Source of the DNA: Candidatus Tayloriibacteriota bacterium
GTDB lineage: Bacteria; Patescibacteriota; Minisyncoccia; Phycocordibacterales; PALSA-1337
Reading direction: 5' to 3'
Assembly: GCA_903893855.1 (NCBI GenBank)
Contig: CAITNV010000054.1
Span: 32,562 to 96,561, forward strand
Length of the DNA: 64,000 nt
The translations under genes and the position numbers were made by a program. Every line of letters starts with the position of its first letter. Positions within the stretch are counted from its first letter, which is position 1. Below, piece after piece: positions 1,761 through 27,381 of the stretch. The notes under the pieces were generated by a model that had not been told where the DNA came from, did no database searches, and saw only the letters and a program-made list of their open reading frames with translations.

Positions 1761-1857
1761 TAAATAAAAATGAAATGAATTAGTTTTCCACAGTTGTAAG
1801 GATTTGCAAAAAAAATTGCGTTTTGTTACAAATATGAAATCATAAAAAATATATAGT

Positions 1858-2031
1858 ATGCCAAAAACAAAAGCACTACCAAAAGAAGAAGAATTAGAGG
1901 ACGATGAACCAATAAAGGTCCCGGCTGGTGACATTGAGGAAGAAGAGCTCGGCAACGTCGAAGAATCAGAAGATGACGGCATGATGGATGCTGAGGACGT
2001 AAACCCATTTGGGGATCGCTGGGAAGAATAG
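1858..2031 (+). CDS. Small highly acidic hypothetical protein, about 57 aa (MPKTKALPKEEELEDDEPIKVPAGDIEEEELGNVEESEDDGMMDAEDVNPFGDRWEE)
   Basis: The ORF is below the 60-aa track cutoff. A TTGCAA..TATAGT promoter-like sequence lies directly upstream. It is antisense to the low-complexity 222-aa track ORF, which looks spurious. Confidence 0.3.
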   Translation: MPKTKALPKEEELEDDEPIKVPAGDIEEEELGNVEESEDDGMMDAEDVNPFGDRWEE

Positions 2032-2093
2032 TTCCGCATTTTTTATATAATTGCGGTGTCCAGCAAGGACTAAATATGATAGAATTTTAAAAT

Positions 2094-6100: not shown

Positions 6101-6341
6101 TTTATTTAATAGATTATTACTATTAGTCCTGTGGATATGGGGATAGATTTTTATTACCCATACATCGCTTCATATTTTACCTATTAGGATTTCCACAACC
6201 TGTGAATAAAATCTGTATAAAAAAATAATATATTTTTTTATAAAAAATTACCCACAAACCGCCAACACTCTTTGAACAACCTATAAACAATCTTTCAACA
6301 AGCTCCCCACAAGCTATCCACAGTCTTATCCACACCTTAAA
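6101..6341. other. Putative oriC: DnaA-box cluster plus an AT-rich putative DNA-unwinding element in the dnaA-dnaN intergenic region
   Basis: A perfect TTATCCACA lies at 6326-6334. Near-consensus boxes lie at 6314-6322 (cTATCCACA), 6248-6256 (TTAcCCACA) and 6130-6138 (reverse-complement aTATCCACA), with TTTCCACAA at 6190-6198. A nearly pure A/T run lies at about 6218-6250. Confidence 0.6.
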
Positions 6342-7854: not shown

Positions 7855-7989
7855 ATGTCATTTACATACAATCCTAAGAAAAGAAAGCGCGCAAAGTCAC
7901 ACGGTTTTTTGGTCCGAAAGAAGACGACAGCTGGACGAAATGTCCTTAAGCGTCGCCGAGCTAAGGGTCGTAAGAAACTGTCAGTTTAA
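7855..7989 (+). CDS. rpmH: 50S ribosomal protein L34
   Basis: The 44-aa translation [44 protein letters not shown] is the conserved L34 sequence. It is too short for the ORF track. rnpA follows. Confidence 0.9.
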
Positions 7990-8026: not shown

Positions 8027-8386
8027 ATGATTCCAAAAGATAGGAGATTAACTACTAAGCTATTGGATGAAGTAATCAAAACAGGGAGACTATTTCAGTC
8101 CCCTGTTTTGTCCTTGAGGGCTAGTAAGGTCACGTCGGGCAAAACCCGCTTTTCCACAGTTGCTTCAAAGAAGCATTTTAAGACCGCAGTTGAGAGAAAT
8201 AAAATACGCCGACGTCTTTATGTAGCTATCACTCCCCTATTGCCGGTTGTCGATAAAGAGTCTATAGACAATAACCGAACCTTCCACTGTATGATTGTAG
8301 CGAAACCTCAAGTGTTACGGCTTACTAAGGACGAGCTCGCAAAAGCCGTACAAGATATATTATTCGAATCTCGTATCCTGCAATAG
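8027..8386 (+). CDS. rnpA: Ribonuclease P protein component
   Basis: This basic 119-aa protein sits in the conserved rpmH-rnpA-yidC synteny. Confidence 0.8.
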   Translation: MIPKDRRLTTKLLDEVIKTGRLFQSPVLSLRASKVTSGKTRFSTVASKKHFKTAVERNKIRRRLYVAITPLLPVVDKESIDNNRTFHCMIVAKPQVLRLTKDELAKAVQDILFESRILQ

Positions 8387-8432: not shown

Positions 8433-9206
8433 ATGTTTTCATATTTATACACAACATTTATCTTCGCTCCTCTTTATAACGGTCTAATTGCGCTTTTTGA
8501 TACGATTCCTTGGATTGATGCGGGTATAGCGGTGATACTCTTTACGATAATCGTTCGCCTTATCCTCTTCCCTCTTTCAAAAAGAGCTATTATCGCCCAA
8601 GTTAAGATGCGAGAACTTCAACCTGAGCTCGATAGAATCAAGATCGATTACAAAGACGATCGACAGAAGCAAGGCACGATGATGATGGAAATGTATAAAG
8701 AGAAAGGAATCCATCCTTTTTCGAGCGTTTTGTTGCTTTTTATTCAGTTGCCTATTATTTATGCTCTATATGGAGTATTTATTCATTCAGGCCTCCCTGT
8801 CGTAGATCACACACTTCTTTATTCTTTTATCAGTACACCGGTTATCAACATCCACTTCTTTGGCCTTTTTGATATTACAAAGCCAAGCCTCATTCTTTCT
8901 CTCGGTGCAGCAGTTGCTCAGTACCTACAGCTTGAATTTTCATTGAATGCGATGAAGTCTTCTGCTCCTGCGGCCAAGAATGGTGTTAAATCACAAGCAG
9001 ATATGGCTCAAAGTATGACCAATCAGATGAAATACATATTTCCAGTTGTTATTTTCTTCATCTCATATCGCCTTTCAGGAGTACTCTCACTGTATTGGAT
9101 TACAACAAACCTCTTCACGCTTGTTCAGGAGCTCGTAGTTCGCAAGAAATTAGCTCATAAGAAGACTCACGATGGACGGCCAGCGGTTCCACCAATTAGC
9201 ATTTAA
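8433..9206 (+). CDS. yidC: Membrane protein insertase YidC (short form)
   Basis: The 257-aa protein has multiple TM segments. It sits downstream of rnpA, and the conserved core resembles YidC/Oxa1. Confidence 0.85.
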   Translation: MFSYLYTTFIFAPLYNGLIALFDTIPWIDAGIAVILFTIIVRLILFPLSKRAIIAQVKMRELQPELDRIKIDYKDDRQKQGTMMMEMYKEKGIHPFSSVLLLFIQLPIIYALYGVFIHSGLPVVDHTLLYSFISTPVINIHFFGLFDITKPSLILSLGAAVAQYLQLEFSLNAMKSSAPAAKNGVKSQADMAQSMTNQMKYIFPVVIFFISYRLSGVLSLYWITTNLFTLVQELVVRKKLAHKKTHDGRPAVPPISI

Positions 9207-9227: not shown

Positions 9228-10514
9228 CTAAGAGTTAAGGTTGACTGACCAAAGTGTTAGGTCTCGCTTGTTGATGAAATATAGAACGTTTTCTTTTGGG
9301 TCTAGTGTTAAATTGGTAGCATCTAGTAATTCGCCAGGGAAATTAAGCATTGTAGCTATCTGGTGAGCCTCCCCTGTTGTGATATTAACCTCCCATATGC
9401 TATCGGTGAATGCGGTGTTGCCTTGATACCAATCTTCTGGATACTGGGCTGTTGGTATCGTAGATGGTACGGCACAAATAAGGTTGTCCTTCTTTATTGA
9501 GCTCCAAACACATTTCTCTGGCATGGTGTTGAAAGCAAGTTCTTGATCAGTTCCAGTTTTTACATCAAAAATTGATGATGACAGGGTCTGTCCGACAGAC
9601 TTAGTGTAGAGAATCTTGGTAGCGTCTTTGTTTGTAAGTGTCGCTAGGCCATTTATTCCGCCTAAAACCTTTGTAAATTGGCCCGTCTTCGTGTTCACGA
9701 AGTAAAGGAAGCCTGCAAGAGCTGAATTACCTTTGGTTGTAATCGCAAGTGTACTATCGGTCGGCCATTCAACATTGATATCTTTAAGTGGAGTAGAGAA
9801 TAATTTAATGGTTTTGGTACCATCAAATTGCGAAATATAGCCAGATCCGTCTGCGAGGCGGAATATTTTATCTGCAAGCGGAGATAATGCCAAAACCGTC
9901 GTGTTTGCAGGAAGGACATCCCCTTTTAGGACATATGGTGTATTCTTTGATATCGATGATGTTGCCGTGGTCGTTGCTTGAGTTGGTGATTTGCTTAAAG
10001 CTACATAAAAATTAGTAATCTTGGTTCCTGTATCATCGAGTGATTGAAAAACGAAAGCTGTTCCATTACGATTCCAGAAGCTTTGATATATCATCGGTAC
10101 GGTCGTGTTGGAAAGTAGAGTTGTATCAAGTGAATTCGATCGAGCTTCATACACATAGCCTGTGCCACGATTAACCCAGAGTACGAGCGTTGATGTTCCA
10201 CTTGTTGACGCCACCATTCCCCCAACCGGCGTAGTGCTCAATTCACGGATTGTAGGAATAGCTACTGTTGTAGAGGAACTATTTTGAGCATTTTGACCAG
10301 TATTGTTCGTAGTGTTACGTAGCGGTAAGGTGTTTTGTGTACGAGTCGTTCCATTAAGAGGTGTAAAGATATTCCCTCCCGAAGTAGTCGTGGTAGTAGT
10401 TGTACGAGTGTTAATAACACCAGAACCAAAATAATTATTGTAAATCCAATATCCTCCCCCAGCGAGGACTAGTACTAAAATGATTATTATGAGGATTGAG
10501 GTTTTTTTGGACAT
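9228..10514 (-). CDS. Hypothetical membrane-anchored protein: N-terminal TM, poly-Thr/Gly-Asn linker, and a C-terminal beta-propeller-like (PD40/WD40-like) domain. It is the last gene of the T4SS-like operon.
   Basis: The N-terminus MSKKTSILIIIILVLVLAGGGYWIY is a TM helix. A TTTTTTT run follows. The C-terminal half is a repetitive beta-strand-rich region. Confidence 0.6.
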   Translation of the reverse strand: MSKKTSILIIIILVLVLAGGGYWIYNNYFGSGVINTRTTTTTTTSGGNIFTPLNGTTRTQNTLPLRNTTNNTGQNAQNSSSTTVAIPTIRELSTTPVGGMVASTSGTSTLVLWVNRGTGYVYEARSNSLDTTLLSNTTVPMIYQSFWNRNGTAFVFQSLDDTGTKITNFYVALSKSPTQATTTATSSISKNTPYVLKGDVLPANTTVLALSPLADKIFRLADGSGYISQFDGTKTIKLFSTPLKDINVEWPTDSTLAITTKGNSALAGFLYFVNTKTGQFTKVLGGINGLATLTNKDATKILYTKSVGQTLSSSIFDVKTGTDQELAFNTMPEKCVWSSIKKDNLICAVPSTIPTAQYPEDWYQGNTAFTDSIWEVNITTGEAHQIATMLNFPGELLDATNLTLDPKENVLYFINKRDLTLWSVNLNS

Positions 10515-10526
10515 ATTTTGGTTTTA

Positions 10527-11579
10527 TTACTGACCAGGTAGGTAGCTTCCATGTTGTTGATTAGTTCCTGTTTTATTTGCATTTTTTTGCGCCGCCGCTT
10601 TGTCTGCAGCTGCCGCCGCAGCCATATCCGCTTGTTTCTTCAAGAATGGCGCTTGTGCAGCGTTATATGCAGCAGTTAACGCAGCTTGATCAGCCACATC
10701 GTTATTGGCTTTCAACGTTGCCATGTCTGCATTGTAGACTGCAGTATTTGCGTTTAAGCTTGATTGTATTAATTCAGGTGTTTCTATTCCATTATATTGA
10801 GTTGCGAGCTTTTCTCTTTCGAGAAGTGCATTTGCAGCGAAATCATTGGTAGCATGCGCAAAGGCTTCTTTATTTATTGATGCGGTAGCTGTGTCTTGCA
10901 GATTCTGCCATTTTTGTATAGCACCTTGGCAATCAGGTGTAAGAGAGTTTTCGTTCTGACTTCCATTACTTTCCAAACATTTCGAATTGATAAGATCGTT
11001 ATATGCTGTCGCTACTGCGGCATTATCGGTTGCTACTTTTGCTTGAAGTGCACGAGTTTCATTGGTAAGTTCAGCTGCTTGTGCAGCTAACGCAGCAACT
11101 GCAGCAGGATCACTGGTACTTATTGGTTGTACTGTCAAATTAAGCTTTGGTACGGTAACGAGGCTTATGTCTACGAGCTGAGGGTTAATGGTGTAGAGGA
11201 TAAGATATGATAGGAGTGCTCCAGCAAGGCCTAAGAAAGCGTTTTCTATCGTCGATCTCGCGTCCCCCTTCTTGGTCACTGAGTCGGTAAGCATGTATTG
11301 AAAACCGCCAATTATAACCATAACAACGGTTGCAAATACCGCAACCGCAATCATTAGTTTAAATATATAGACAATATATGTCTGTATATTGACTTCCTTC
11401 GTTACTTCGCCGAGTGTGCAGTTGTTCCCTGTTCCTGGGATGCATGGTACTGGTTCAAGAAGTGTATATTGTCCTGTTGTCTGTGCAGATACTATTAGGC
11501 TTGGTGCTGAAAGAGTGCCAAATATGACGATAATGCTACAGAGCGCAGAAACTTTTTTGATTATGTTTTGTGTAGACAT
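10527..11579 (-). CDS. Hypothetical pilin-like / VirB2-TrbC-like candidate: signal peptide, two hydrophobic helices, then an Ala/Gln/Asn-rich coiled-coil C-terminal region
   Basis: There is a signal peptide. TM helices lie at IVYIFKLMIAVAVFATVVMVIIGGFQYML and AFLGLAGALLSYLILYTINP, giving a hairpin topology like conjugative pilins. The Ala-rich tail is about 200 aa. Confidence 0.55.
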   Translation of the reverse strand: MSTQNIIKKVSALCSIIVIFGTLSAPSLIVSAQTTGQYTLLEPVPCIPGTGNNCTLGEVTKEVNIQTYIVYIFKLMIAVAVFATVVMVIIGGFQYMLTDSVTKKGDARSTIENAFLGLAGALLSYLILYTINPQLVDISLVTVPKLNLTVQPISTSDPAAVAALAAQAAELTNETRALQAKVATDNAAVATAYNDLINSKCLESNGSQNENSLTPDCQGAIQKWQNLQDTATASINKEAFAHATNDFAANALLEREKLATQYNGIETPELIQSSLNANTAVYNADMATLKANNDVADQAALTAAYNAAQAPFLKKQADMAAAAAADKAAAQKNANKTGTNQQHGSYLPGQ

Positions 11580-11587
11580 GTTTTTGA

Positions 11588-12649
11588 TTAAAATGTGATA
11601 CTAGCCGCGCCGTTAACTTTGTTCGAAGTGGTGTCGTATATTGCACTAAAAGAGTTATTTGCTCTTTGGAGGATGTCTGTAGTGTTTTGGATTTCGAGCT
11701 TAATATCAGAACTACCCGATGTTCCACTTGGTGTCGCGAGCAAAATTGCAGAGCTCGAAGCTAGTTCATCATGAAGAATTTCATTAATCATCCAGCTATA
11801 CGTCATGGTACCCGAATCGTCTGCCATATCGAAACCATAAGGTGCTGCAGTAATCTTAATTTGATTATGCTCAAGATTGATACTATCCCCTACTGACTTA
11901 TTATATAACACTCCATAGAGCGGGTCATTTTGATAAAAGTTAATTGCTGGAGATGACGGATTGATGGCGATTTGGCTTTCAGCGTGAGCCTTGCCATCAG
12001 TAGAATTTACTTTTAAGTTAATAACAAACGGTCGTGCTATTAATGAACCTTTTATCGAAAGGCTTTGTTTGCCATAACCTGAAAGACTGCCAAGTACGGT
12101 TGAATCCTGTTTCCATGTGTATATAAGAGCTTGAGGGTCAATTGGTTTGCCGTTTGAATCCACAAGGTTTGGCATTGCTACAAGCTTAACGGTATTTTGG
12201 TAAACAAAGAGATTTTTGCCTCGATATAAAGGGGGCACGTATCCACTCGTTTCAGGAATTATATCCACTGAGCCTGTTTTAATAGTAAGTACTTTTTGAA
12301 TTGTCGCACCTTCGACGGTCTTTACACTGACACTTATAGCTAGGCTTTTGCCAACAGGAGGAGCCTGCACGGTAATGCTTGTGAGGCCTACGCTTTTACC
12401 AATCGATTTACCGTTTGAAGACCAATTGATCGTAGCACCGTTTAGATCTGTGCTGTAGCTTTTTACGTCCACAGTGACACTATCCCCCGGTGCAGGGTTG
12501 GCTGGTGACATTTCAATATCGACTCCGTCAAGAGATACATTACCAATTGAAGATTGAGCATGTGAAACGTGCGGATTAGACAGGCTAAAGAAAGTAAAAA
12601 ATAGGATAAATATACTAATGTGCAGAACTAGAAATCCATTTTTTTTCAT
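11588..12649 (-). CDS. Hypothetical secreted protein (signal peptide; beta-rich, Ig-like repeats likely)
   Basis: The signal peptide is MKKNGFLVLHISIFILFFTFFSLSNPHVSHA. No recognisable catalytic motif is present. Confidence 0.55.
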   Translation of the reverse strand: MKKNGFLVLHISIFILFFTFFSLSNPHVSHAQSSIGNVSLDGVDIEMSPANPAPGDSVTVDVKSYSTDLNGATINWSSNGKSIGKSVGLTSITVQAPPVGKSLAISVSVKTVEGATIQKVLTIKTGSVDIIPETSGYVPPLYRGKNLFVYQNTVKLVAMPNLVDSNGKPIDPQALIYTWKQDSTVLGSLSGYGKQSLSIKGSLIARPFVINLKVNSTDGKAHAESQIAINPSSPAINFYQNDPLYGVLYNKSVGDSINLEHNQIKITAAPYGFDMADDSGTMTYSWMINEILHDELASSSAILLATPSGTSGSSDIKLEIQNTTDILQRANNSFSAIYDTTSNKVNGAASITF

Positions 12650-12686
12650 CTATATAATTCTACCACAACATACGCTGGATGTAATA

Positions 12687-13109
12687 CTACTTGCGAGGTA
12701 AACGCATTCCGTTATTGTTAACCGGAGGGGGTTGGAATTGTTGTCTATTTTTTGCTTGTATTGAGGCTGGTGTTGCTACGGTTGCGGCTGACGCTAAACG
12801 TTTGTTCTCGGCACGGACTGAGAGATGTGTCATTGCAACATCAAGTATCCACAATGGTAATGAACCAGCAACGAGCTCTTCAAAGAAGAAAGTTGCAACG
12901 AGTGTTAATATACGCCCCGGTTTAGCCATAGAAACACCTCTCCAGTAGAAATAACCTCCCAATATTGCACCAATCCCTGCATCGGCAAATTCGTTTATAA
13001 ATTCTCCAGGACCTGGGAAAAAAACATCAATAAGCGGTTGCCCAATATCACATGCCAATGTGAAGCAATAAAGTACTATCCAATCTACAGTTTTCATTTT
13101 TGAACCCAT
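12687..13109 (-). CDS. Small integral membrane protein (2-3 TM) immediately downstream of the VirB4-like ATPase
   Basis: The 140-aa protein has hydrophobic segments. It lies within the co-directional operon. Confidence 0.5.
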   Translation of the reverse strand: MGSKMKTVDWIVLYCFTLACDIGQPLIDVFFPGPGEFINEFADAGIGAILGGYFYWRGVSMAKPGRILTLVATFFFEELVAGSLPLWILDVAMTHLSVRAENKRLASAATVATPASIQAKNRQQFQPPPVNNNGMRLPRK

Positions 13110-13120
13110 TTTGTTGCGTT

Positions 13121-14947
13121 TTATATTCGAGCGGCACCGTTTGCCATTTCGAGCTCGTCTTTGGCTTTTTTAATAGCCATAACTTGTGCAGGATTCGTAG
13201 TAATAATCTGATCTTCTGTATACGAAGCGATGATTTTTAGTGCGACATGCTTAAGTCCTACGAAGAATATGCCCTCCCCCACTTCTGATTCAAGAAGTAG
13301 ATATTTCTCTTCATCAGTAAGGCTAAATGTCTGCTGAATTCTATCAATCGATGAAGGTGACTGTTTGAGGAGGATTTGTATCGAAGAGTTGGTAAGAATC
13401 GGCAAGCCATAGGGTGATTTCAAGAAGTCATCAACGTCTTGAGTGATTGTTGCAAGTCCTAAGTAATATTTTCGGCCTCGTTTAGCCAAACCAAGTAGGA
13501 ATGAAGCCGTATCTTCTGATTTCATCATCCACCAAGCCTCGTCAATAACAAGAAGACGCTTCTTTGGAGTACGACGAATAGCATTCCATATATAGTGTGT
13601 AACAATATACATTGCGACCGGCTTCAGTTCATCTTCCATATCGCGAAGTGAAAACACCGCAAATTTCTTATTAATATCCACATTTGTAGGCTTATTAATA
13701 AAGCCAGACCAAGTACCTTTGGTGTATTTCGTAAGTCTTTCGACGAGTGATTCAGCACCTTCCATGCCCGCCAAAACAAGCTCAAAGTCAGATAGAAGTG
13801 GCGGTGTCACATTACTAAAATCAGATTCAGGGGTGATATCCTTAAGTGCGTATGTTTCACTAATAGCTCGATCGATAATGGCATCTTCTTCCTGTGTAAG
13901 GCCACCAAGCATGATACGGAATAGCCCAACGAGGTTAATAATGTTAGATCGAAGCACATCAGAAGCGGCTTCGTCCTCTCGTGCGATCGGCAAGTCAAAA
14001 GGATTGATATGATTCTCTGAGTTAAGAGAGATATTGAAGTACTTCCCTCCTGTGGCATTCGCCATATACTCATATTCGCGTTCAGGGTCGATAACGATAA
14101 CTTCGGTATCGAACATAAGTGTTCGTAATATTTCGAGCTTGGTGCAATATGATTTACCCGATCCAGACTTAGCAAACGTTACTGAATTGTAGTTCTCGAG
14201 GAGGAAGCGGTCAAAAAGCACGAGAGATGAATTGTGGCGATTAATTCCATACAAAATACCCTTATCAGATGTGAGGTCGAATGAAACGAAAGGAAATATG
14301 CTCGAAAGTGGCGAAGAATTAAGCTTAGAATGTACTGAGAGTCGATCGTCTCCAAGCGGTAACACGCTTTTGTAACCATCTTCTTGCTGGAAAAGAGCAG
14401 GTTTTATATAAACAAGCTTAGACTCAAGGATAGATTTAACCTCAGACTCAAGCTTATCAAGTTCGCCATCAGAATCTCCAAAAAGAGTAATATAAACACC
14501 AACATCGAAGATTTTCTCTTGTGCTTGCATGAGATTATTACGAAGTGATTCGAGGTCTTGATATGCAGTGTCGAGCATTGGGTCACGAACGAGTCCTTTA
14601 TCCTCTCTTTGATTGATCTGGCTCTGTACTTCAGCCACCTTCTTCTGGAAATGACGTAGGATTTTAGCCGTATCTACCGGATGAATGAATATTGAAATGT
14701 TAAAAACCTTATCAAGGTTAATGATGGGGGCAAACCAAGAATCAGTAAGGAAACGTGGGTATGATATAACGAAGAATGTGCGCGCGACTTTCTCCCCGAG
14801 GTTAAGCTCTTTAGGACTAATCTTAAGTGCAGAAGGTGCAATAATGTCACGGAGTTCCAACACTCCCTGTTCATATATATCTTGTGGCAAAAGCGATGTT
14901 ATCGCAGGTGCATCTTTTTTACCAAATAATTTTCCTATAAAGCTCAT
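13121..14947 (-). CDS. VirB4/TrbE/CagE-family type IV secretion ATPase (Gram-positive PrgJ/TcpF-like)
   Basis: Walker A is AKSGSGKSY and Walker B is LLVIDEAWWMM. A conserved ...GLATITQD... motif is present. The protein is 608 aa and has an N-terminal domain ahead of the ATPase core. Confidence 0.8.
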   Translation of the reverse strand: MSFIGKLFGKKDAPAITSLLPQDIYEQGVLELRDIIAPSALKISPKELNLGEKVARTFFVISYPRFLTDSWFAPIINLDKVFNISIFIHPVDTAKILRHFQKKVAEVQSQINQREDKGLVRDPMLDTAYQDLESLRNNLMQAQEKIFDVGVYITLFGDSDGELDKLESEVKSILESKLVYIKPALFQQEDGYKSVLPLGDDRLSVHSKLNSSPLSSIFPFVSFDLTSDKGILYGINRHNSSLVLFDRFLLENYNSVTFAKSGSGKSYCTKLEILRTLMFDTEVIVIDPEREYEYMANATGGKYFNISLNSENHINPFDLPIAREDEAASDVLRSNIINLVGLFRIMLGGLTQEEDAIIDRAISETYALKDITPESDFSNVTPPLLSDFELVLAGMEGAESLVERLTKYTKGTWSGFINKPTNVDINKKFAVFSLRDMEDELKPVAMYIVTHYIWNAIRRTPKKRLLVIDEAWWMMKSEDTASFLLGLAKRGRKYYLGLATITQDVDDFLKSPYGLPILTNSSIQILLKQSPSSIDRIQQTFSLTDEEKYLLLESEVGEGIFFVGLKHVALKIIASYTEDQIITTNPAQVMAIKKAKDELEMANGAARI

Positions 14948-14955
14948 TTTTTTAT

Positions 14956-15615
14956 TTAATTTATTTGCATTGGCTTCTCAGTGTCCCCAGGGTTGAATAT
15001 CTTATAGAACAATTCTACCACTTCTTCGGTTCCAAGTTCAGCGACTCGTATACCGCAACGAGTAAGTCCTTGCTCCACTGAACCTACTCTCTGCTCGAGC
15101 TGGCTTCGGTATTCCTCGAATTCTTCATTTGCGAGGGTTTTACCACTTCCGATGCTTTGTGATGAACCTGTATTATTCTTTCGATTTAAGAATGAAGAAA
15201 TTGGGTTCTTCGTCGCACTAATCTGTGCAGGAGAATACGGGATGACGATGAAGAAGCTTTTTGTCATAATGCTTGAATTGTCGACGAAGGTTTTGACGAA
15301 TTCAATGTATTCTCGGGTTTGAATTTTCATGAGTTCGCTTGCCTGTTCCTTATAACGGCTTTCAAGAAGCGCAACATACGGCCTAATATCAAGCTTTTTT
15401 GACTGTATGAAGATCTGAACTGAGAAATCAAGAGAGTTTAAAAAGTTTTGAAATTGAAAAATAATAGAGTTCTGCTCATCTATTGACTTTAGGGCGAAGT
15501 TTACCGATGTTGCAAGGACGATTGCGCGCAAAGAACCGTCATTAAGAATAGCAATTCCATCACGGATCTCTTTAATTGGTACAAATTCTTGAGTTGTTTT
15601 GGTTGAAGTGGCCAT
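14956..15615 (-). CDS. Hypothetical protein resembling a VirB4 N-terminal domain (PIKEIRDGIAILNDGSLRAIV...NFALKS..EQ...FQNFLNSLDF..QIFIQS)
   Basis: The start was set at the internal Met MATSTKTTQEF, so it abuts the upstream gene's stop. The sequence pattern matches the N-terminus of Gram-positive VirB4-like proteins. The following 608-aa VirB4 has its own N-domain. Confidence 0.5.
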   Translation of the reverse strand: MATSTKTTQEFVPIKEIRDGIAILNDGSLRAIVLATSVNFALKSIDEQNSIIFQFQNFLNSLDFSVQIFIQSKKLDIRPYVALLESRYKEQASELMKIQTREYIEFVKTFVDNSSIMTKSFFIVIPYSPAQISATKNPISSFLNRKNNTGSSQSIGSGKTLANEEFEEYRSQLEQRVGSVEQGLTRCGIRVAELGTEEVVELFYKIFNPGDTEKPMQIN

Positions 15616-15616
15616 A

Positions 15617-16078
15617 TTAACGTTGATTTCTATTACTATAGAGACTTTCTTTAATATCGAGACTCCATGCAAGGTCTTTCAATTTACTTTCTGAAATCTT
15701 CGGCACCATAATACCCGCATAATTCTTGCCGAGGCGTACATCTTCCGCCGCTTGTTCCCCCGGAGTCATATTCTTCTGTAGTGCAGGATCTGGACGGCGA
15801 TTTACTTTCTTCCAGATGTAGAGTTTGGCAGCGAAGTAGTATTTGAATGCCGCTTCAACAACAAAAATGAATGGTTTATTGTTGATTCTATAGAAAGCGA
15901 GGGCCCCAGAAAAAGTAGCAACTACAACTATAAACGGGAATGCAAGGAGTAATGGTAAAAATTTATACAATAGGAAACAAATTCCAGCCCCACCAGCCAT
16001 ATAAATAAATTGGCGCAAGGTGAATGGGCCGAAAATCTTGTCCTCAACTTCGATAAATTGTGGGACTTGGAACTGCAT
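15617..16078 (-). CDS. PrgI/VirB3-like small membrane protein
   Basis: The N-terminus MQFQVPQFIEVEDKIFGPFTLRQFIYMAGGAGICFLLYKFLP is followed by a second TM. This is characteristic of the PrgI family, which is encoded just upstream of VirB4 in Gram-positive T4SS. Confidence 0.6.
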   Translation of the reverse strand: MQFQVPQFIEVEDKIFGPFTLRQFIYMAGGAGICFLLYKFLPLLLAFPFIVVVATFSGALAFYRINNKPFIFVVEAAFKYYFAAKLYIWKKVNRRPDPALQKNMTPGEQAAEDVRLGKNYAGIMVPKISESKLKDLAWSLDIKESLYSNRNQR

Positions 16079-16098
16079 GCGTATATTATACCCTACTC

Positions 16099-16749
16099 TT
16101 ACGCGATTGGCTCGCGGTATGGATCAGAAGTAGTGTTCGGCGTTTGAGGTTGAGGGTTTTTTGTTGTCACGGGAGCGGACATGAATTGATCGAGGAGATT
16201 GATAGACTTTACCGCAGGTGCTGGAGCTGTTGCAGGAGCGGATACAGGTGTTGCTATTGGGGTTGGGACAGTGTGCGCTTCCTGACCAGCGACAATTGCT
16301 GGATATTCCGCGAGGAGATTTACAGGAGTTGGTGTTGCAGTATTCTGTGCGAGCGTGGTCGGATTTTCAATTCCTTTTAGGGTATTTGCACGAGCAATTG
16401 CTTCATTGTCCAACTTTTCGTCATCATTCGTATCTTCGAGTTTTTGTAGGCTCTCACGAATACTACCAATTATATCAGTGTTTATGTCACCAGCTATATC
16501 TCTCGCTGTCTCTCTTGGGATCTCGACGTTATCACTTAGATTTGAAATTAAATTATTAGAACTTTCAAGGCCAAGCATGACAAGCATCGTCTCGGTCTGT
16601 ATGTCCCCAGCTTGTTCTATGGTTAAGGCGTATTTTTTTGATATTTTAGCAAATTTCTCAGGAAGGTTTCCTCCTGTTATCGCATCTTGAATCTCTCGGG
16701 GAAGAAGCTCAAAGTTTTTTTTAATTAATTGTTGTGTTTCAGGTTCCAT
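16099..16749 (-). CDS. Hypothetical protein (no TM; Pro/Thr/Ala-rich C-terminus) within the T4SS-like operon
   Basis: The 216-aa protein is co-directional and tightly spaced with its neighbours. Confidence 0.5.
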   Translation of the reverse strand: MEPETQQLIKKNFELLPREIQDAITGGNLPEKFAKISKKYALTIEQAGDIQTETMLVMLGLESSNNLISNLSDNVEIPRETARDIAGDINTDIIGSIRESLQKLEDTNDDEKLDNEAIARANTLKGIENPTTLAQNTATPTPVNLLAEYPAIVAGQEAHTVPTPIATPVSAPATAPAPAVKSINLLDQFMSAPVTTKNPQPQTPNTTSDPYREPIA

Positions 16750-16755
16750 ATTGTA

Positions 16756-18573
16756 TTATTTTTTATCTGGTTTGTTTTTTGCATCACCGTCACTTTTTTC
16801 TTCGGTTAGCAGATCTTTTATATCATCTGCAATTTTTTCATTTTTTGATTTATTCATTCCTTTACGGATCTTATTGGCGGCATCTTTCCTGCCCTTTTTG
16901 GTCATGTTAAAGAAGCCTGCACCCTTTTCAAGATTATTAGCGTATTCCTCCTTGCCTTGCTTTGACAGCCTACCTTGAATATCTGTATCATCGACAGCTC
17001 TTTCCGATGCCTCTTTTTTTGCAGCATCCATTACAGCTTTTAGTCTTTCTGCACGTGCCGCTTCTTCCGCTCTCTCTCGAGCGCTTAAATTGCTATCTGT
17101 AGATCTAGATGCTGCCAGATTATACAAGCGCTCTTTTTTGTTGGCTTCATATTCTAACCTCTTTGTCTCTTTCTTATACTCGTCAGGAGTTATTCTTGAT
17201 AGTGCGCGATCGGCAAACTTTGTTTGTGATTCAGTATATTTTTTTAATCTGTCACTATAGCCGCCTTTTGAGCCGCCAAATGTAGCATTCGTAGTCCTTG
17301 AAACTATTTGTTTATCTACAAGGTTTCCGATAGTAGGATTAGAAGTAACAAATCTTTTGAATTTATCATTATCAGCAACATATTTGGCACCCCTTCCAAT
17401 TGTGTGTTGGCCGACCCAACCTGCACTACCGCTTACGCCGCTTGTAAGCTTCCCTTGTCCCCATTTCTTAGCGCTCTGGCCTAATTTAACTGCGATATCA
17501 GTTCCATCTGAACCAATTTTAATTGCAGCCGCCATCGGGGCATTGATAAACATAAAGGCAATGATGTATTGGAGGACGATACCGACAACATTTGGAGAGA
17601 CGAGAGCATTACCGAGTGTGCCAGTTGTCGAAGATACTTTTGCAAAATCAAAGAAACGTGGATCATTAATAACGCTAACCGCAACATACATAAGAAATAG
17701 ATACACCGGCATAAAGAGACACATTGCAATGAGTGTCTTTTTCCACTGCTCGGCGTATTGCTCTGCTTGTGGCAATATCATAGCGATGAAATAGATCGGC
17801 GAGAAAGCCATGAGAAGGATAAGAATTCCTAGTCGTACTGCGAATGCCACCGCCGCAAAGAGGAAGCTTCCTGCTGCAGCAAGCATAAGGACTGTTCCTC
17901 CGGCATACGCAAGGGTAATCGTACGGTTATTATTAGGATCTCCCCCACCATTTGGAGCAATAGCGCTAGCTCCAACGATCTTGTTGATACTCAAGCTCTG
18001 CATGAATACATTCGATAGACCTCCATCGTTAAACGCTGAAGATATCATTCCATTAAAGCCGTTAGTTGCAGCCACGGTATCTTGTCCGGGGGCAATAGCG
18101 TTATAGAACGATAGCGATATGATGTTTGAAGTATCTACTGCGAGCCGAGTAAAGAAAAGGCTGAAGTTAATAAGGAGACCAGCAATAATAATATTTTTAA
18201 TTAGCGTAGAAAGATCCGCGTTCTTTAGCCCTAAAATCATCTTGATTGAAGCATACAGAAGCATGAATATTATGAATATGCTCGAGAAGTCTCGAATGGT
18301 TCTCCATGCAATACCAATTGCCGTTACTTTATCGACGATAGTTTGAATGTGAAGAGTAGCTACAAGTGTTCCATTGAGAAGCACTCCAGTGAGGGTCAAA
18401 ATTGCTCCAGCTGCAGCGAATGCTAGTTCGGCGATCCATGATGTTACTGTAAATATGGTCGCTGTAACATCAATACCCAAAAATGCATACGCAAAGTGCG
18501 GCGTAATAAGCGTCAATAACGGTATCGCGATTGCAACAGCGGTAATTATTTTTTTGTACGAGTTGCTTTTCAT
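16756..18573 (-). CDS. VirB6/TrbL-like polytopic membrane protein with a long Lys/Glu-rich C-terminal hydrophilic tail
   Basis: A signal-like N-terminus is followed by at least 6 predicted TM helices and an about 230-aa charged tail. This architecture is typical of VirB6/TrbL and the Gram-positive PrgH/TcpH proteins. Confidence 0.6.
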   Translation of the reverse strand: MKSNSYKKIITAVAIAIPLLTLITPHFAYAFLGIDVTATIFTVTSWIAELAFAAAGAILTLTGVLLNGTLVATLHIQTIVDKVTAIGIAWRTIRDFSSIFIIFMLLYASIKMILGLKNADLSTLIKNIIIAGLLINFSLFFTRLAVDTSNIISLSFYNAIAPGQDTVAATNGFNGMISSAFNDGGLSNVFMQSLSINKIVGASAIAPNGGGDPNNNRTITLAYAGGTVLMLAAAGSFLFAAVAFAVRLGILILLMAFSPIYFIAMILPQAEQYAEQWKKTLIAMCLFMPVYLFLMYVAVSVINDPRFFDFAKVSSTTGTLGNALVSPNVVGIVLQYIIAFMFINAPMAAAIKIGSDGTDIAVKLGQSAKKWGQGKLTSGVSGSAGWVGQHTIGRGAKYVADNDKFKRFVTSNPTIGNLVDKQIVSRTTNATFGGSKGGYSDRLKKYTESQTKFADRALSRITPDEYKKETKRLEYEANKKERLYNLAASRSTDSNLSARERAEEAARAERLKAVMDAAKKEASERAVDDTDIQGRLSKQGKEEYANNLEKGAGFFNMTKKGRKDAANKIRKGMNKSKNEKIADDIKDLLTEEKSDGDAKNKPDKK

Positions 18574-18580
18574 ACTGGTA

Positions 18581-20152
18581 TTAGTTTACACCATTATTCG
18601 CAGTCGGGCTAAATGTCTGACAAGCATAGAGCCGGTTATTTGCATCTGACTGTATTGGATCGATGGTAGAACGCAATGTGGTTAGATCTGTATTTGATTG
18701 GGTTACTGCTGCAGTTGACGGAAGGTTACCACTCGCCGCTAAGCCCTGTAACTGCTGGCTTGGATCATTGAGGCCGGTTGCGTTCTGGGCGTCTGAGAAT
18801 TTATTTGCAAGATCAATCAATGATTGATATGAAGAGCTTGCATTGTTGTATTTTACGGTGCTCTGGGCTACAAGAGGCGCGACTTGGGTAAGAATTATAG
18901 TGTTAATCTGGTCTAGCTGACCTTGAGCATGAGCGACCGCAAGTGCATTCGTTTGATTACCTACACCGTAACTTGGTTGTGAGTACTTTGTAATCAAATC
19001 GTTGTTACAACTTTGTGCTTTATTGAGTGTCGTTTGTGCAGCAAGTACAATGTTGAGGCCTACTTGGGCGTTCTGTGTTACTTGTTGAGCATTGTTTAAA
19101 TACGGCTGTATATTATTAATCGTAGACGCCTGTACAGATTGAAGATTATTGCTCTGCTCAGCTTGTATTTGCTGAACATACGCGGTGTTACTTGTTCCAT
19201 TTGAACCGCTAATTGCACCAAGGCCACTCTTAAGTGCAATAAGAACGAGCTGAGAGAAAGCGGCATTAATAATCGCATTAATATCATTTGCGAGTTCAAG
19301 CTCATCAGTTGGTACGCCGAGACTTTTATTAAGTGTGGCCGAAATAGCGCTTCCTGGTGTCTGAACCTCACAATCCTGTCCTGTACCTTGGCCCGAATAG
19401 TCTTCTGGATCGTCAGTACATTTTTCGAAAGAAAGAAAGCCGTTCGCACTTAAAACAAAGTTTTGTTTTAAGGTGACTTGTTGGCCGATTTTTGCATTGA
19501 GATCACTTTGTGCAAGAAGAAATGCACCATTTGGATTGTTTGCTGGTACTGTGGTTAACGTAAGAAATGCCGGCCATCCTCCTTGTCGGAAATCACCAGC
19601 CGTAAAGCCATTTATTGAAGCACCTTTAACGGCGTTCTTTGTATTCTTTACCATGTCACTTAATGTACATGTATAGGGGTTTTTGATTCCTCCCGACATC
19701 TCGAGTGCTAGAGAGATTCGAACACTTATATTAAATGGGCTACAAAGGCTCGCCGCGAGAGGGCTGACACTTGAGAGGAATTTACCCGCAATCTGATCAC
19801 CCACTCCTTCGAAGAATTTTGTTGGATTCTGGATAAAAGAAGGGCTACCATTAAAACCTGAGTTAATCCAAGAGATTATACTAAGGGTTAATTGTTGAAG
19901 TATTTGCTTCACAATCATTACCGCTACTTTATCGAGGCTAAAAGATTTTAGTTGAAGTAATGACTCGGATTGTGCGGATACTCCAGCAGATGCTGCAATT
20001 GTACTAGTGTTTGTTTCTACAAGTATGTCTGAGACGATGTCCCCCGCTCCAAACAATGCATCAACCTTTTTTGGTGCATAAAGTTGTGAGCTTGCAAGTA
20101 CAACAAGCGCGAAGGATATAATGATTGATGTTTTTTTAAAAAAGAAATTCAT
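18581..20152 (-). CDS. Hypothetical secreted Gln/Asn/Ser/Thr-rich protein (523 aa)
   Basis: The signal peptide is MNFFFKKTSIIISFALVVLASSQLYA. The protein is low-complexity Q/N-rich and has a few Cys residues. Confidence 0.55.
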   Translation of the reverse strand: MNFFFKKTSIIISFALVVLASSQLYAPKKVDALFGAGDIVSDILVETNTSTIAASAGVSAQSESLLQLKSFSLDKVAVMIVKQILQQLTLSIISWINSGFNGSPSFIQNPTKFFEGVGDQIAGKFLSSVSPLAASLCSPFNISVRISLALEMSGGIKNPYTCTLSDMVKNTKNAVKGASINGFTAGDFRQGGWPAFLTLTTVPANNPNGAFLLAQSDLNAKIGQQVTLKQNFVLSANGFLSFEKCTDDPEDYSGQGTGQDCEVQTPGSAISATLNKSLGVPTDELELANDINAIINAAFSQLVLIALKSGLGAISGSNGTSNTAYVQQIQAEQSNNLQSVQASTINNIQPYLNNAQQVTQNAQVGLNIVLAAQTTLNKAQSCNNDLITKYSQPSYGVGNQTNALAVAHAQGQLDQINTIILTQVAPLVAQSTVKYNNASSSYQSLIDLANKFSDAQNATGLNDPSQQLQGLAASGNLPSTAAVTQSNTDLTTLRSTIDPIQSDANNRLYACQTFSPTANNGVN

Positions 20153-20158
20153 TATATT

Positions 20159-21088
20159 TTAATGTAAATTTGGCGCAATGATATATCCCGCTTCAGTTGG
20201 TGTGAATGTGATATTTGCTGATTTCAAATATTGACCGACCTCAGTTAGGGCATTTGAAAGATCTAGAACACCTTTTTGATATGCACTAAGTCCCGCAAGA
20301 CTTGTAATGCCGTCAGAATATACTTTCGCTAGGCTTTCATCGGCAAATACTATTTCATTCATTGCATTTACGAGATCAACATGAATTTTTGTTAGCGCTG
20401 ACGGTGCCGGAGTTGCGATAAAATTTTTTAAAATGTTTTGATACGAAGTGATGATCGGGTCGAGCTGTTTGAGCAAGTCAGGGTTCTTTGTATTGAGGCT
20501 GTTTTGCACAATTTCCGGTTCGTATGAATGAATTGTGGTGTTAGCCTTGATGACGGTGACAATAGAATTAACGTATCTTTTAATCGAAATGACGCTATTA
20601 TCAGGTGTAATTAAGATATCTTTTGAGGTGTAAACTTTCGGAGTCGCAATATATGTCCCATCGGCCAAGACCTGATTAGTGATCTGTTGTTGAATTTGCG
20701 GGTCATTAAAATTAACTCCTGCCTTTTGGTATTCAGCATATTTTGAAAAGAGATCTCGGCTAAAAAGGTCAGTCGCCGTAAGGTTAGTTTGTACTGGTGC
20801 CGCTTTCCCTGTTGCCCATGTTGAACTAGCTCCGAGTGTTCCAGAAAGAGACTTTTGCCAATTACCCTCATATGCAACAAGTGAGTTTTGTATAGATGTT
20901 GTAGCGGTCATAATTGCTTTATTGAGCGTAGCAACCTGCTGCTGTTGAGCAACACTCGCATCATTTTGGTATTTTGAAACCACAAAAGCACCAAGGATAA
21001 TAAGGACAGCAGTCGTAATTAGTATAAAGTTTTTAGCGCTAGGTTGTTTCAAGGCGTGTAGCTGGCTAGTAATTTGCATATAGAGCAA
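20159..21088 (-). CDS. Hypothetical bitopic membrane protein (short cytoplasmic N-terminus, one TM, about 260-aa extracytoplasmic domain). Its topology is VirB8-like, but no similarity is claimed. It is the first gene of the T4SS-like operon.
   Basis: The TM is FILITTAVLIILGAFVV. The upstream 21089-21174 region is AT-rich and promoter-like. Confidence 0.5.
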   Translation of the reverse strand: MLYMQITSQLHALKQPSAKNFILITTAVLIILGAFVVSKYQNDASVAQQQQVATLNKAIMTATTSIQNSLVAYEGNWQKSLSGTLGASSTWATGKAAPVQTNLTATDLFSRDLFSKYAEYQKAGVNFNDPQIQQQITNQVLADGTYIATPKVYTSKDILITPDNSVISIKRYVNSIVTVIKANTTIHSYEPEIVQNSLNTKNPDLLKQLDPIITSYQNILKNFIATPAPSALTKIHVDLVNAMNEIVFADESLAKVYSDGITSLAGLSAYQKGVLDLSNALTEVGQYLKSANITFTPTEAGYIIAPNLH

Positions 21089-21174: not shown

Positions 21175-22086
21175 CTAAATGATGTATGAACTAAGGGCGA
21201 ACGTAATGTCCTTCCAGTCATTTAGAGACAGTTCTTCGGCACGAATTGTCGGAGAAAATCCTTTGTTTTGCCACAAAGTGCGAATTTTTTCTTTAAAAGC
21301 TTCAATTGTCTGTTTTTCGGAAGTATTTTCGAGTAATGATTCGAGATTTTTAATTAAAACCTTTCGTTTGTGTGCGAAGCCAGTTTTAACAACCTCAAAA
21401 AAGCTTTTCTCGTCAATAGCTATGTTTTCAGCCGTAAAAAAGTCTTTCGATATGTTGTCTATGTATAATAGAGCAGAATCAACGTTGGGAATTGGTCGAA
21501 AGAAGCGGGCGGGCACGGTCGTGACGAATTTTGGTGACCCATAAGCCTTTACGCTTATTGATAATATGCTCTCTTTTTCTCGATTTGATCCTGAATTTAC
21601 CGCGGTATTAACAGAAATACGCTTCGCGACTTCTTTTTGGAGCATTAAAATCATTCTTTTTGGTGGAAACTGGGTTTCTAGAAATTTACGGAGGAATTCT
21701 CCGGTGATGTAATACGGAATATTCGCTGCAATTACATAATTTAGTCCTTTAAGCCCGATATTTTCTGGGTCAATTTCAAGAACATCTCCGTGAATTAGTG
21801 TGAACTGTCTTGTAGACATGCTCGAAGCGAATTTTTCTTTAAGAAAATCGATCGCGCGGTCATCTTTCTCGATTGCAATAACTCGAATGCCTGTTGCGAG
21901 TAGTTTCTCTGTCAGTGCGCCCTTCCCCGGTCCTACTTCAAAGACTATTTCGTCCGCTTCCCCACCAGCCTCCACTCCAATCCTTGCGGCGTGAATCATT
22001 TTGCCAATGACATTTGGAGCATGGAGGAAATTCTGTCCAAGGGATTTTTTGGCGGTAAAGTTATTGTTCGGCTCTTGCATGTACAC
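21175..22086 (-). CDS. rsmA: 16S rRNA (adenine1518/1519-N6)-dimethyltransferase RsmA/KsgA
   Basis: The motifs SLGQNFL and EVGPGKGALTEKL (a SAM-binding site) are present. Confidence 0.9.
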   Translation of the reverse strand: MYMQEPNNNFTAKKSLGQNFLHAPNVIGKMIHAARIGVEAGGEADEIVFEVGPGKGALTEKLLATGIRVIAIEKDDRAIDFLKEKFASSMSTRQFTLIHGDVLEIDPENIGLKGLNYVIAANIPYYITGEFLRKFLETQFPPKRMILMLQKEVAKRISVNTAVNSGSNREKESILSISVKAYGSPKFVTTVPARFFRPIPNVDSALLYIDNISKDFFTAENIAIDEKSFFEVVKTGFAHKRKVLIKNLESLLENTSEKQTIEAFKEKIRTLWQNKGFSPTIRAEELSLNDWKDITFALSSYII

Positions 22087-26975: not shown

Positions 26976-27341
26976 TTATTTAGCCATGTGTTCTAGGCAG
27001 GTATTTGCAGAAGAATTCGCTTCTAGACGGTCATTTTCGATTGGTTTATTGCAGATTTCGCAAACACCATATGTTCCCTTCTCAATTCTTTCAAGTGCAG
27101 AATTAACTGCGGATAGTTGTGTTTCTAGTTGTTCAAGAATCGCAGAATTTTCTTCAAAGTCTTCGATTTTATCAGCGAGTTCGTTTTCATCGGCATTGTC
27201 GACATCCATCTTCGAGGGGCTAGCTTCCCATCCCCCAGCAATCTTTGAATCAGTATGTCCAAGGCTTTTAAGCTCGGTTTCGAGCATGTTTTTTTCTGTG
27301 TTTAATTTTTTACCGAAATGCTCGAGATCTTTTTTATTCAT
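26976..27341 (-). CDS. DksA/TraR-family C4-type zinc-finger protein
   Basis: A coiled-coil N-terminus is followed by C-terminal GTYGVCEICNKPIENDRL...TCLEH. The protein is 121 aa. Confidence 0.65.
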   Translation of the reverse strand: MNKKDLEHFGKKLNTEKNMLETELKSLGHTDSKIAGGWEASPSKMDVDNADENELADKIEDFEENSAILEQLETQLSAVNSALERIEKGTYGVCEICNKPIENDRLEANSSANTCLEHMAK

Positions 27342-27381
27342 AGTGGTTTTATTATTTTCGGTTATATACTACCTCATTATT

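Follow-up and report, generated by a model that had tools for sequence, protein, structure and literature searches.

The locus considered here raises the question of why a bacterium should keep, close to its putative replication origin, a block of genes that resembles a conjugation machinery. It lies on contig CAITNV010000054.1 of Candidatus Tayloriibacteriota bacterium (assembly GCA_903893855.1), of which a stretch of 64,000 nucleotides, hereafter the window, was analysed, and it consists of eleven tightly packed, co-directional minus-strand open reading frames (ORFs) that run from position 21088 down to 9228 with intergenic gaps of 1-37 nt in the ORF list; they are numbered here as genes 1 to 11 in that order. 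Very probably, the locus is a resident, vertically inherited and non-conjugative type IV secretion system (T4SS) of a Paceibacteria genome (Patescibacteria, or Candidate Phyla Radiation), a degree of confidence that covers the identity of the system and its non-conjugative status and not the direction of transport. The T4SS belongs to a Patescibacteria-specific clade that stems from the conjugation machinery of monoderms (mating-pair formation type FATA, MPF-FATA) and has lost the DNA-processing module.

The assignable core

Profile and motif matches allow five of the eleven genes to be assigned, namely to a VirB4 ATPase, a TrsD-like N-terminal domain of VirB4, a PrgI/VirB3-like protein, a VirB6/TrbL-like protein and a VirB2-type pilin. 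The initial annotation of the stretch had left eight genes unassigned; two of these, the TrsD-like and the pilin gene, can now be named, and six remain. Its eleven co-directional ORFs with short gaps were recovered in place, with two starts moved. For gene 1 the ATG at 21079 is the probable start, and for gene 6 the most likely one is the ATG at 15615 instead of the mechanically called TTG at 15672 (238 aa), because its orthologues measure 210-215 aa and the public gene call on the identical contig 219 aa; this start also abolishes the apparent overlap with the PrgI gene.

The VirB4-family ATPase recognised at the outset is gene 7, which matches the NCBIfam model CD1110 with an E-value of 7.2e-111 and 371.7 bits (cut-off 325) over positions 184-732 of 752, as well as Pfam P-loop_TraG (2.9e-26) and, in the PDB, the C-terminal domain of VirB4 in 4AG5 (4e-40) and TrwK of R388 (5e-7). 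The Walker A motif 'KSGSGKS', the Walker B motif 'LLVIDEAWW' and the ITQ motif, within 'ATITQD', can all be read in its sequence. What gene 7 is without is the N-terminal domain, and this is encoded by gene 6, which aligns to positions 2-128 of the CD1110 VirB4 model, matches VirB4_plasma (7.7e-10, in the N-terminal region) and TrsD (1.3e-6) below the curated full-length cut-offs, and is annotated as TraC-like (PF26593) in the public gene call. Since gene 6 covers the first ~130 model positions and gene 7 positions 184-732, VirB4 is split over two polypeptides. The initial annotation had missed this split, and also two genes taken up below, one for a XerC/D-type recombinase and a distal one for a homologue of coupling proteins.

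Among the other anchor proteins of that annotation, the PrgI/VirB3-like protein stands without reservation: gene 5 exceeds the gathering score of PF12666 PrgI (E 1.7e-9; 38.6 bits, cut-off 27), and its hydrophobic segments fall within residues 27-65. The VirB6/TrbL-like protein, which had been called with confidence, reaches its family in profile searches by way of relatives. Gene 3 is polytopic, as described, with several hydrophobic segments within residues 5-355, and ends in a charged, Lys/Glu-rich tail of ~200 aa (the 'extended VirB6' layout; net charge +21), but the window protein gave no Pfam match at E<=1, no NCBIfam match and no PDB sequence match. Nine of its 36 homologues match PF04610 TrbL (best 1.4e-7), some carry precomputed PF19590/PF04610 annotation, and hhalign aligned the same transmembrane region, weakly and at 17-38% probability, with R388 TrwI (E 1.5e-3) and Bacteroides TraJ (E 3.3e-4). 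Gene 3 is accepted here as a putative member of the VirB6 superfamily, through its homologues only.

The pilin-like protein with two transmembrane segments and a 200-aa tail likewise falls into the T4SS_pilin family through its orthologues, 29 of 31 of which match PF18895 (best 2.3e-9); the window protein stays below threshold (E 0.0031 for PF18895 and 0.021 for the NCBIfam Mbov_0395 pilin-like model). Gene 10, the sole pilin copy within the window, has a signal peptide, a Cys-x-Cys mature N-terminus, transmembrane segments at residues 63-98 and 113-132 with a K/R-rich loop in between, and a C-terminal extension of ~200 aa rich in Ala, Gln and Asn, which by the positive-inside rule would be extracellular.

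Conservation and chromosomal setting

Relatives were sought in one genome per species, where at least 591 stretches encode relatives of the gene 7 VirB4; the comparisons given here are confined to the best 80 of these loci, picked by VirB4 similarity, across which gene 7 is 78-93% identical. These loci are labelled Parcubacteria, Paceibacteria, Taylorbacteria, Kaiserbacteria and Zambryskibacteria, with some carrying a default label of 'Saccharibacteria'. The order and strands of the whole arrangement, pcrA-rsmA, the 11 genes and yidC-rnpA-dnaA-dnaN, are kept in 60 of the 63 loci with enough sequence, and all 11 gene slots are filled in relatives. The question whether the locus is core or accessory, which had been left to a comparison of synteny, is thus answered in favour of core (60/63 related genomes).

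The degree of conservation differs greatly among the components. Median identities are 82% for VirB4, 64% for the TrsD-like protein (present in 80/80 loci), 60% for DnaA, 58% for PcrA, 55% for both PrgI (79/80 loci) and DnaN, and 27-39% for the other components. In every one of the 50 genomes in which both were seen, VirB4 identity is higher than that of DnaA; choosing the 80 loci by VirB4 inflates its identity somewhat, but this bias does not account for the 20-point gap. The genes with a signal or anchor segment (1, 2, 9, 10 and 11) all fall within the range of 27-39%, so that the operon appears to pair a nearly frozen motor with fast-evolving surface parts.

Outside these genomes the resemblance falls away. 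Among the VirB4s of 72,556 plasmids the closest, from Firmicutes and Actinobacteria, are only 28-36% identical to gene 7, the grouping of the latter with Patescibacteria being one of identity values and not of a tree. Viral contigs gave no VirB4 relatives in a scan that was seeded by exact peptide patterns and hence addresses close relatives only. The G+C content of the cluster (0.40-0.42) is the same as that of its flanks, a search for repeats, direct or inverted, in its flanks gave nothing of note, which agrees with the earlier report of no repeats or att sites, and no relaxase was found among the scanned window ORFs of at least 150 aa, five of which match no family. Taken together, the collinearity, the uniform composition, the lack of flanking repeats, the distance of plasmid VirB4s, the lack of viral relatives and the lack of a relaxase show the cluster to be a fixed part of the core genome and not an integrative and conjugative element (ICE). 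The proposal that the locus is no conjugative element, and that its T4SS is resident and of the Gram-positive minimal type, is thereby upheld, with 60/63 loci collinear, no relaxase among the scanned ORFs and no adjacent integrase.

The same proposal had stated that no recombinase was present. None adjoins the cluster, but the window does contain a tyrosine recombinase of the XerC/XerD type at a distance of 8.5 kb, with pcrA, an M23 peptidase gene, comM and other genes lying between it and the cluster (Table 1); it looks like the housekeeping enzyme of chromosome-dimer resolution. A homologue of VirD4/TraD-like coupling proteins is found directly behind secY-adk-map, 35 kb from virB4 and outside the operon. 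It carries an N-terminal extension of ~500 aa, and its scores against the NCBIfam models SXT_TraD (6e-13) and CD1115 VirD4-like (3e-10) are both far below the cut-offs; this distal homologue may or may not work together with the T4SS. The 410-aa ORF that comes after it (58623-59855, plus strand) has no family match.

No VirB1-like hydrolase was recognised by Pfam or NCBIfam among the 11 genes. The opposite strand carries, 3 kb upstream of the operon, the gene of a LysM and M23 peptidoglycan peptidase. This enzyme, detected at the corresponding place in only 11 of the 80 loci, is a candidate VirB1 analogue whose association with the operon is uncertain. VirB1-like M23/LysM proteins have been reported near virB4 in Paceibacteria (PMC12102498). 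Next to the peptidase gene, 4 kb upstream of the operon, lies a ComM-like Mg-chelatase-family ATPase gene (25390-26913, minus strand), found at the same place in only 1/80 loci, which does not speak for a link with the T4SS. The ComM family is associated with competence in other bacteria.

The flanks had been described as yidC and origin-proximal genes on one side and rsmA/pcrA on the other, and this is how they were found, with rpmH added. Between dnaN and dnaA, five TTATCCACA-like DnaA boxes (<=1 mismatch, one perfect) lie inside 205 nt, and the cumulative GC skew has its minimum at ~6-8 kb of the window; on these two grounds the replication origin (oriC) is placed ~3 kb from the cluster. 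With oriC at ~6-8 kb, the T4SS operon, rsmA and pcrA would all be on the lagging strand, head-on to replication and immediately right of the origin. Lagging-strand placement beside oriC is an unusual orientation for genes that are presumed to be highly expressed. A promoter and terminator scan of the locus gave a result no better than that for shuffled sequence, so that the operon boundaries are not fixed by the scan.

Elsewhere in the window, ruvB (cut by the window start), yebC and ruvC follow one another at 24-1760 on the plus strand; a suspected frameshift in yebC was rejected, the overlapping ORF at 1215-1760 being RuvC (PDB 1HJR, 1e-19). A tRNA-SeC called by ARAGORN at 44925-45019 (minus strand) is inside an ORF of the ribosomal-protein operon, is not reported by Rfam and is probably a false positive. 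ORFs of 156-399 aa at 1371-2039 (minus), 26986-27456 (plus), 27382-28581 (minus) and 33363-34178 (plus) have no Pfam or NCBIfam match.

Table 1. Genes of the T4SS cluster, its flanks and other features of the window, with positions in the window and the matches on which names are based
Feature	Position	Strand	Description	Matches
Gene 1	20159-21088	-	Bitopic membrane protein, 309 aa (306 from ATG 21079)	
Gene 2	18581-20152	-	Secreted or anchored protein, 523 aa	
Gene 3	16756-18573	-	VirB6/TrbL-like polytopic membrane protein, 605 aa	Via homologues
Gene 4	16099-16749	-	Acidic protein, 216 aa, Pro/Thr/Ala-rich C-terminus	
Gene 5	15617-16078	-	PrgI/VirB3-like, two transmembrane segments, 153 aa	Pfam PF12666
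Gene 6	14956-15615	-	TrsD-like detached VirB4 N-terminal domain, 219 aa	NCBIfam
Gene 7	13121-14947	-	VirB4 ATPase, 608 aa	NCBIfam CD1110, Pfam P-loop_TraG, PDB
Gene 8	12687-13109	-	Small, moderately hydrophobic protein, candidate membrane protein, 140 aa	
Gene 9	11588-12649	-	Secreted protein, 353 aa	Signal-like hydrophobic segment, residues 3-26
Gene 10	10527-11579	-	VirB2-type T4SS pilin, 350 aa	PF18895 via orthologues
Gene 11	9228-10514	-	428 aa; N-terminal membrane anchor, Thr/Asn-rich linker, conserved C-terminal domain	
dnaN	4994-6100	-	Flank	
oriC-like DnaA-box cluster	6130-6334	n/a	Between dnaN and dnaA	
dnaA	6342-7688	-	Flank	
rpmH	7855-7989	+	Flank	
rnpA	8027-8386	+	Flank	
yidC	8433-9206	+	Flank	
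rsmA/ksgA	21175-22086	-	Opposite flank	
pcrA/uvrD	22102-24009	-	Opposite flank, beyond rsmA	
LysM + M23 peptidase	24207-25388	+	Peptidoglycan peptidase	Pfam Peptidase_M23 1.9e-28, LysM 3.6e-17
XerC/XerD-type recombinase	29632-30546	+	Tyrosine recombinase	Pfam Phage_integrase 2.5e-43; NCBIfam XerC/XerD ~245 bits; XerA_Arch above cut-off
Coupling-protein homologue	55712-58585	+	VirD4/TraD-like, 957 aa	Pfam DUF87, TraG-D_C, TrwB_AAD_bind

Six lineage-specific genes

Genes 1, 2, 4, 8, 9 and 11 remain lineage-specific, and no paralogues of these six families were found elsewhere within the window. Profile searches of the PDB with genes 1, 2, 3, 9, 10 and 11 returned coiled-coil noise and weak matches to Hoc and TolB only, and hhalign comparison of all profiles with TrwJ, TrwI, TrwG, TrwL and TrwM of R388 and with DUF4141 and TraJ of Bacteroides returned only a short match to the N-terminus of DUF4141 and the weak matches in the VirB6 region.

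A bitopic protein such as gene 1 would be the usual candidate for VirB8. In its predicted structure an N-terminal transmembrane helix is joined, by a linker that has low confidence and looks disordered, to a four-helix bundle, an all-helical domain on the extracytoplasmic side, and on account of this fold the identification as VirB8 was rejected. Neither was any NTF2-fold, VirB8-like bitopic protein recognised among the genes of the cluster, and hhalign comparison with TrwG of R388 gave no match. A feature of 17 of 44 gene 1 orthologues (at loci that include L002, L004, L010 and L021) is the presence of one or two thrombospondin-type-3 calcium-binding repeats (DxDxDGLKDWEE) at about residues 30-110, in the stretch that separates membrane anchor and helical domain; in the window protein only a degenerate remnant of them, 'EGNWQKSL', is left.

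Gene 2 has a signal-like N-terminus. Its central domain is rich in cysteine and strongly conserved, and at the C-terminus long helices form a bundle (a coiled-coil end). A VirB5-like role in a stalk or tip can be put forward purely as a hypothesis: none of 60 homologues matched VirB5/TrbJ (PF07996), hhalign gave 0.4% probability against TrwJ, and the likeness would be one of position and motif only, the motif 'AQ..V.D' directly behind the signal peptide resembling the start of R388 TrwJ, 'AQGIPVFDG'. With respect to DUF4141 (PF13605, a model of 53 residues), 22 of the 60 homologues match at E<=0.01, one of them (P0128) with 31.8 bits against a cut-off of 30 and others with 26-28 bits; the window protein itself has no match. 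The similarity extends over ~38 residues, that is, the signal peptide and the mature N-terminus, and an identification of gene 2 as a TraI/VirB5 homologue was rejected on this ground. There is also a correspondence in gene order with the Bacteroidota systems (MPF-B), where a DUF4141-motif secreted protein is encoded directly upstream of a VirB6-family gene: in Bacteroides finegoldii DUF4141 stands between TraG (VirB4) and TraJ (VirB6), and its counterpart here is gene 2, followed by gene 3. The Bacteroidota protein is 210 aa long, however, against 523 aa here. Gene 2 would thus appear to share an N-terminal module and a gene position with the Bacteroidota DUF4141 proteins, which is a lead and not membership of the family.

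Genes 4 and 8 had no family match in the Pfam and NCBIfam scans, the orthologue scan included. Gene 4, with a net charge of -13 and no hydrophobic segment, is presumably cytoplasmic, and its slot between the VirB6-like gene and the PrgI gene holds an ORF of similar size (median 233 aa) in 60/60 loci. Gene 8, for which the public gene call is likewise 140 aa, was found by tblastn in only 16 of the 80 loci; the slot between VirB4 and gene 9 holds an ORF with a strongly hydrophobic segment (median 157 aa) in 61 of 67 loci, and no segment of the window protein reaches the hydrophobicity threshold.

Gene 9, present in 76 of the 80 loci at a median identity of 35%, is probably made of immunoglobulin (Ig)-like beta-sandwich domains. 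When orthologues of genes 1, 4, 8 and 9 were pooled and scanned, Ig_3 was matched by three sequences and BiPBP_C (1e-6) by two, and these are attributed to gene 9; the profile search of the PDB adds a weak match to an Ig-like domain of Hoc (E 0.003). Gene 11 (58/80 loci, median identity 35%) has a hydrophobic segment at residues 1-27 and 16% Thr, and no Pfam or NCBIfam match. Its C-terminal domain may be a TolB-like beta-propeller, a weak assignment that is suggested by PDB profile matches to TolB propellers of several species (best E 0.005, positions 196-305).

Relatives, mechanism and rival explanations

The type of the system, its non-conjugative nature and its genomic context have all been published between 2023 and 2025. 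Wang et al. (2023) showed, for Saccharibacteria, that a homologous cluster, with a Gram-positive-like composition, pilins and no recognisable relaxase or coupling protein, is indispensable for Southlakia epibionticum to grow as an epibiont (PMC10633639). Quinonero-Coronel et al. (2025) described a Patescibacteria-wide set of VirB4, TrsD, PrgI, VirB6 and VirB2-like proteins in which relaxases are nearly absent, proposed that it serves import, and reported dnaA, dnaN, rnpA, ksgA and rpmH as the neighbourhood of the T4SS in Paceibacteria (PMC12102498). A 2025 review regards the Patescibacteria systems as a new branch of the T4SS superfamily, and as the first T4SS shown to be essential for its own carrier bacterium (PMC12857230), and in cultured Paceibacterales the genes of unknown function with the highest expression include T4SS pilins (PMC10936435). 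The system itself had thus already been described (PMC10633639, PMC12102498); the remark of the initial annotation that such loci had been noted in episymbionts is right, and the loss of the relaxase and the origin-proximal setting had been published too.

With the system of S. epibionticum (SEML1_0006-0019) the present locus shares the chromosomal set of VirB4, TrsD, PrgI/VirB3, VirB6 and a VirB2-like pilin, the lack of a relaxase and of a linked type IV coupling protein (T4CP), and a neighbourhood that corresponds to the reported Paceibacteria pattern. S. epibionticum differs in having six short pilins, where here there is one with a tail of ~200 aa, and an NTF2-like protein, SEML1_0012, where here no NTF2- or VirB8-like gene was recognised. 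The six Paceibacteria-specific genes, on our reading of the published work on Patescibacteria, were left unnamed there, and are partly characterised here.

The relationship to the MPF-FATA systems of Firmicutes (the trs genes TrsC-TrsD-TrsE of pGO1/pSK41 and CD1110 of CTn2) is evident from VirB4, a member of the CD1110 family above the curated cut-off, and from the separate TrsD-like gene directly upstream of virB4 and beside the VirB3-like gene, a split like that of TrsD-TrsE; the envelope logic is also that of a monoderm, with no VirB7, VirB9 or VirB10. Here, however, there is no relaxase in the window, the coupling protein is unlinked, the operon has neither VirB1 nor VirB8, VirB4 is distant from its plasmid homologues in a locus fixed in the core genome, and there is a VirB2-type pilin, which Gram-positive conjugative systems do not have (PMC12857230). 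The MPF-T systems of R388 and Agrobacterium have homologous VirB2, VirB3, VirB4 and VirB6 roles, and TrwK is matched in the PDB, but the present locus has a monoderm envelope and no VirB7-11, and hhalign found neither VirB5 nor VirB8 against TrwJ and TrwG.

A further parallel is offered by the archaeal Ced and Ted systems, which import DNA with VirB2-, VirB6- and VirB4-like parts alone (Beltran et al. 2023, PMC9905601). They too are domesticated chromosomal derivatives of a T4SS, with a VirB2-like pilin, a VirB6-like channel and a VirB4-like ATPase in a single membrane, and have no relaxase or coupling protein (here, none that is linked). Differences are that the present locus also has PrgI, TrsD and another six genes, and that no specific kinship in sequence is seen, the similarity of VirB4 to CedB (6.7e-8, 31.6 bits, cut-off 700) and CedD (6e-4, 18.6 bits, cut-off 600) being at the level of the P-loop or ATPase fold only.

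From these comparisons a mechanism can be proposed. The membrane core would consist of VirB4 and its detached TrsD-like N-domain docking on PrgI/VirB3 and on the extended VirB6/TrbL-like channel, with hexamers of VirB4 seated on VirB3 and VirB6 by analogy with T4SS biology and the architecture of R388 (PMC12857230). VirB4 would pull the VirB2-type pilin, the only one here, out of the membrane, and a pilus or tube would be polymerised from it on VirB6, which would act both as membrane channel and as assembly platform, the ~200-aa tail of the pilin decorating the exterior of the tube. The extracytoplasmic-looking products of genes 1, 2, 9 and 11 would span the cell wall or form tip or host-binding parts, and the fast-evolving signal or anchor proteins as a group (1, 2, 9, 10 and 11) would cross the wall and touch the host. 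Such an apparatus would act at the contact with the host cell and be required for the episymbiotic lifestyle.

What it might transport can be answered only tentatively. The import of host macromolecules, as DNA or other nucleotide sources, is slightly favoured over export and pure adhesion, by analogy and short of being probable, because there is no relaxase, because the coupling-protein homologue is unlinked and in S. epibionticum dispensable although the T4SS is essential, and because the set of VirB2, VirB6 and VirB4 parallels that of Ced and Ted, which are the sole characterised single-membrane derivatives so built and are DNA importers. A more specific version, and a more doubtful one, is a Ced-like conduit in which a tailed VirB2-type pilus, built on the extended VirB6 by the constrained split VirB4, would dock to the host via four extracytoplasmic proteins and draw in nucleic acids or other macromolecules.

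Alternatively, proteins or other molecules might be passed by the apparatus into the host cell or onto its surface, subverting or permeabilising it, with the distal VirD4-like ATPase recruiting the substrates. That a VirD4/TraD-like homologue is encoded within the window speaks for such an exporter, although the homologue is encoded apart from the operon and scores far under the cut-offs of its families. In the view of Wang et al., the system of S. epibionticum 'may instead export proteins' (PMC10633639), and characterised non-conjugative T4SSs are mostly exporters, the effector-translocating and bacteria-killing T4SSs serving as models (PMC12857230); yet in S. epibionticum the T4CP homologue is non-essential while the T4SS genes are essential (PMC12102498), and no candidate effector or translocation signal has come to light. 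Export seems slightly less likely than import.

Less likely still is a VirB2-type pilus that serves adhesion only, in which the pilin tail, the Ig-like protein and the propeller protein would be adhesins that hold the host, nothing being translocated. It would fit genes 1, 2, 9, 10 and 11 evolving fast, as host-binding surfaces do, beside a near-frozen motor, and the large and presumably exposed pilin tail, and T4SS pilins that are highly expressed in Paceibacterales co-cultures have been discussed as adhesion-related (PMC10936435). Attachment in Patescibacteria is, however, already served by type IV pili (PMC12102498, PMC10633639), and a pilus alone would seem to need neither a complete VirB6 channel that bears a long cytoplasmic tail nor a VirB4 under such extreme conservation. 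A decayed or domesticated ICE remnant, near oriC by chance, is largely refuted and highly improbable, for all that VirB4, TrsD and PrgI have homologues among the conjugation proteins encoded by Firmicutes elements and a tyrosine recombinase lies 8.5 kb off, given that the same block with the same flanks occurs in 60/63 related species, the G+C content equals that of the flanks, no direct repeats were found, the recombinase is of the XerC/XerD type with pcrA, the M23 peptidase gene, comM and others in between, no relaxase was found in the window and the constraint on VirB4 exceeds that on DnaA. That these systems arose long ago, by domestication of such an element, is accepted (PMC12102498) and fits a resident, non-conjugative T4SS.

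Several points weigh against the reading of the locus as a resident T4SS that may import host macromolecules, in addition to the selection of loci noted above. The apparatus in this organism is known from sequence alone; the VirB6 and pilin assignments lean on relatives, the window proteins themselves being sub-threshold; no VirB8-like protein was found, gene 1 being modelled as all-helical, and the 11 genes are likewise without a VirB1-like hydrolase; and the relaxase scan covered the 64-kb window, with the rest of the genome outside it. Against import in particular, ComEC already gives S. epibionticum DNA uptake (PMC12102498, PMC12857230), so that import by the T4SS is not required to explain competence, and the coupling-protein homologue 35 kb away leaves room for the export of substrates.

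This returns us to why such an operon should be kept beside the origin of a bacterium of this kind. Patescibacteria, which account for much of the diversity of bacteria, are host-dependent, and if the resident T4SS of the Paceibacteria does form a Ced-like import conduit, this would explain why the T4SS is essential in organisms that are unable to make nucleotides. In that case the six genes without a name would stand for structural classes that are new among T4SS components and that serve to cross a monoderm wall and to engage a foreign cell. Beyond the published work, the present analysis adds the positional conservation of all 11 slots, a constraint on the motor that exceeds that on DnaA, a gene 1 product that is predicted to be a four-helix bundle and not VirB8, the N-terminal module and position that gene 2 appears to have in common with DUF4141 proteins, and the likely lagging-strand placement of the operon beside oriC. 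For the Paceibacteria this means that the whole 11-gene block, beyond its five recognisable parts, is fixed in order, and that the usual candidate for VirB8 turns out, on its predicted fold, not to be VirB8. These points narrow the protein targets once cultivable Paceibacteria become genetically tractable.

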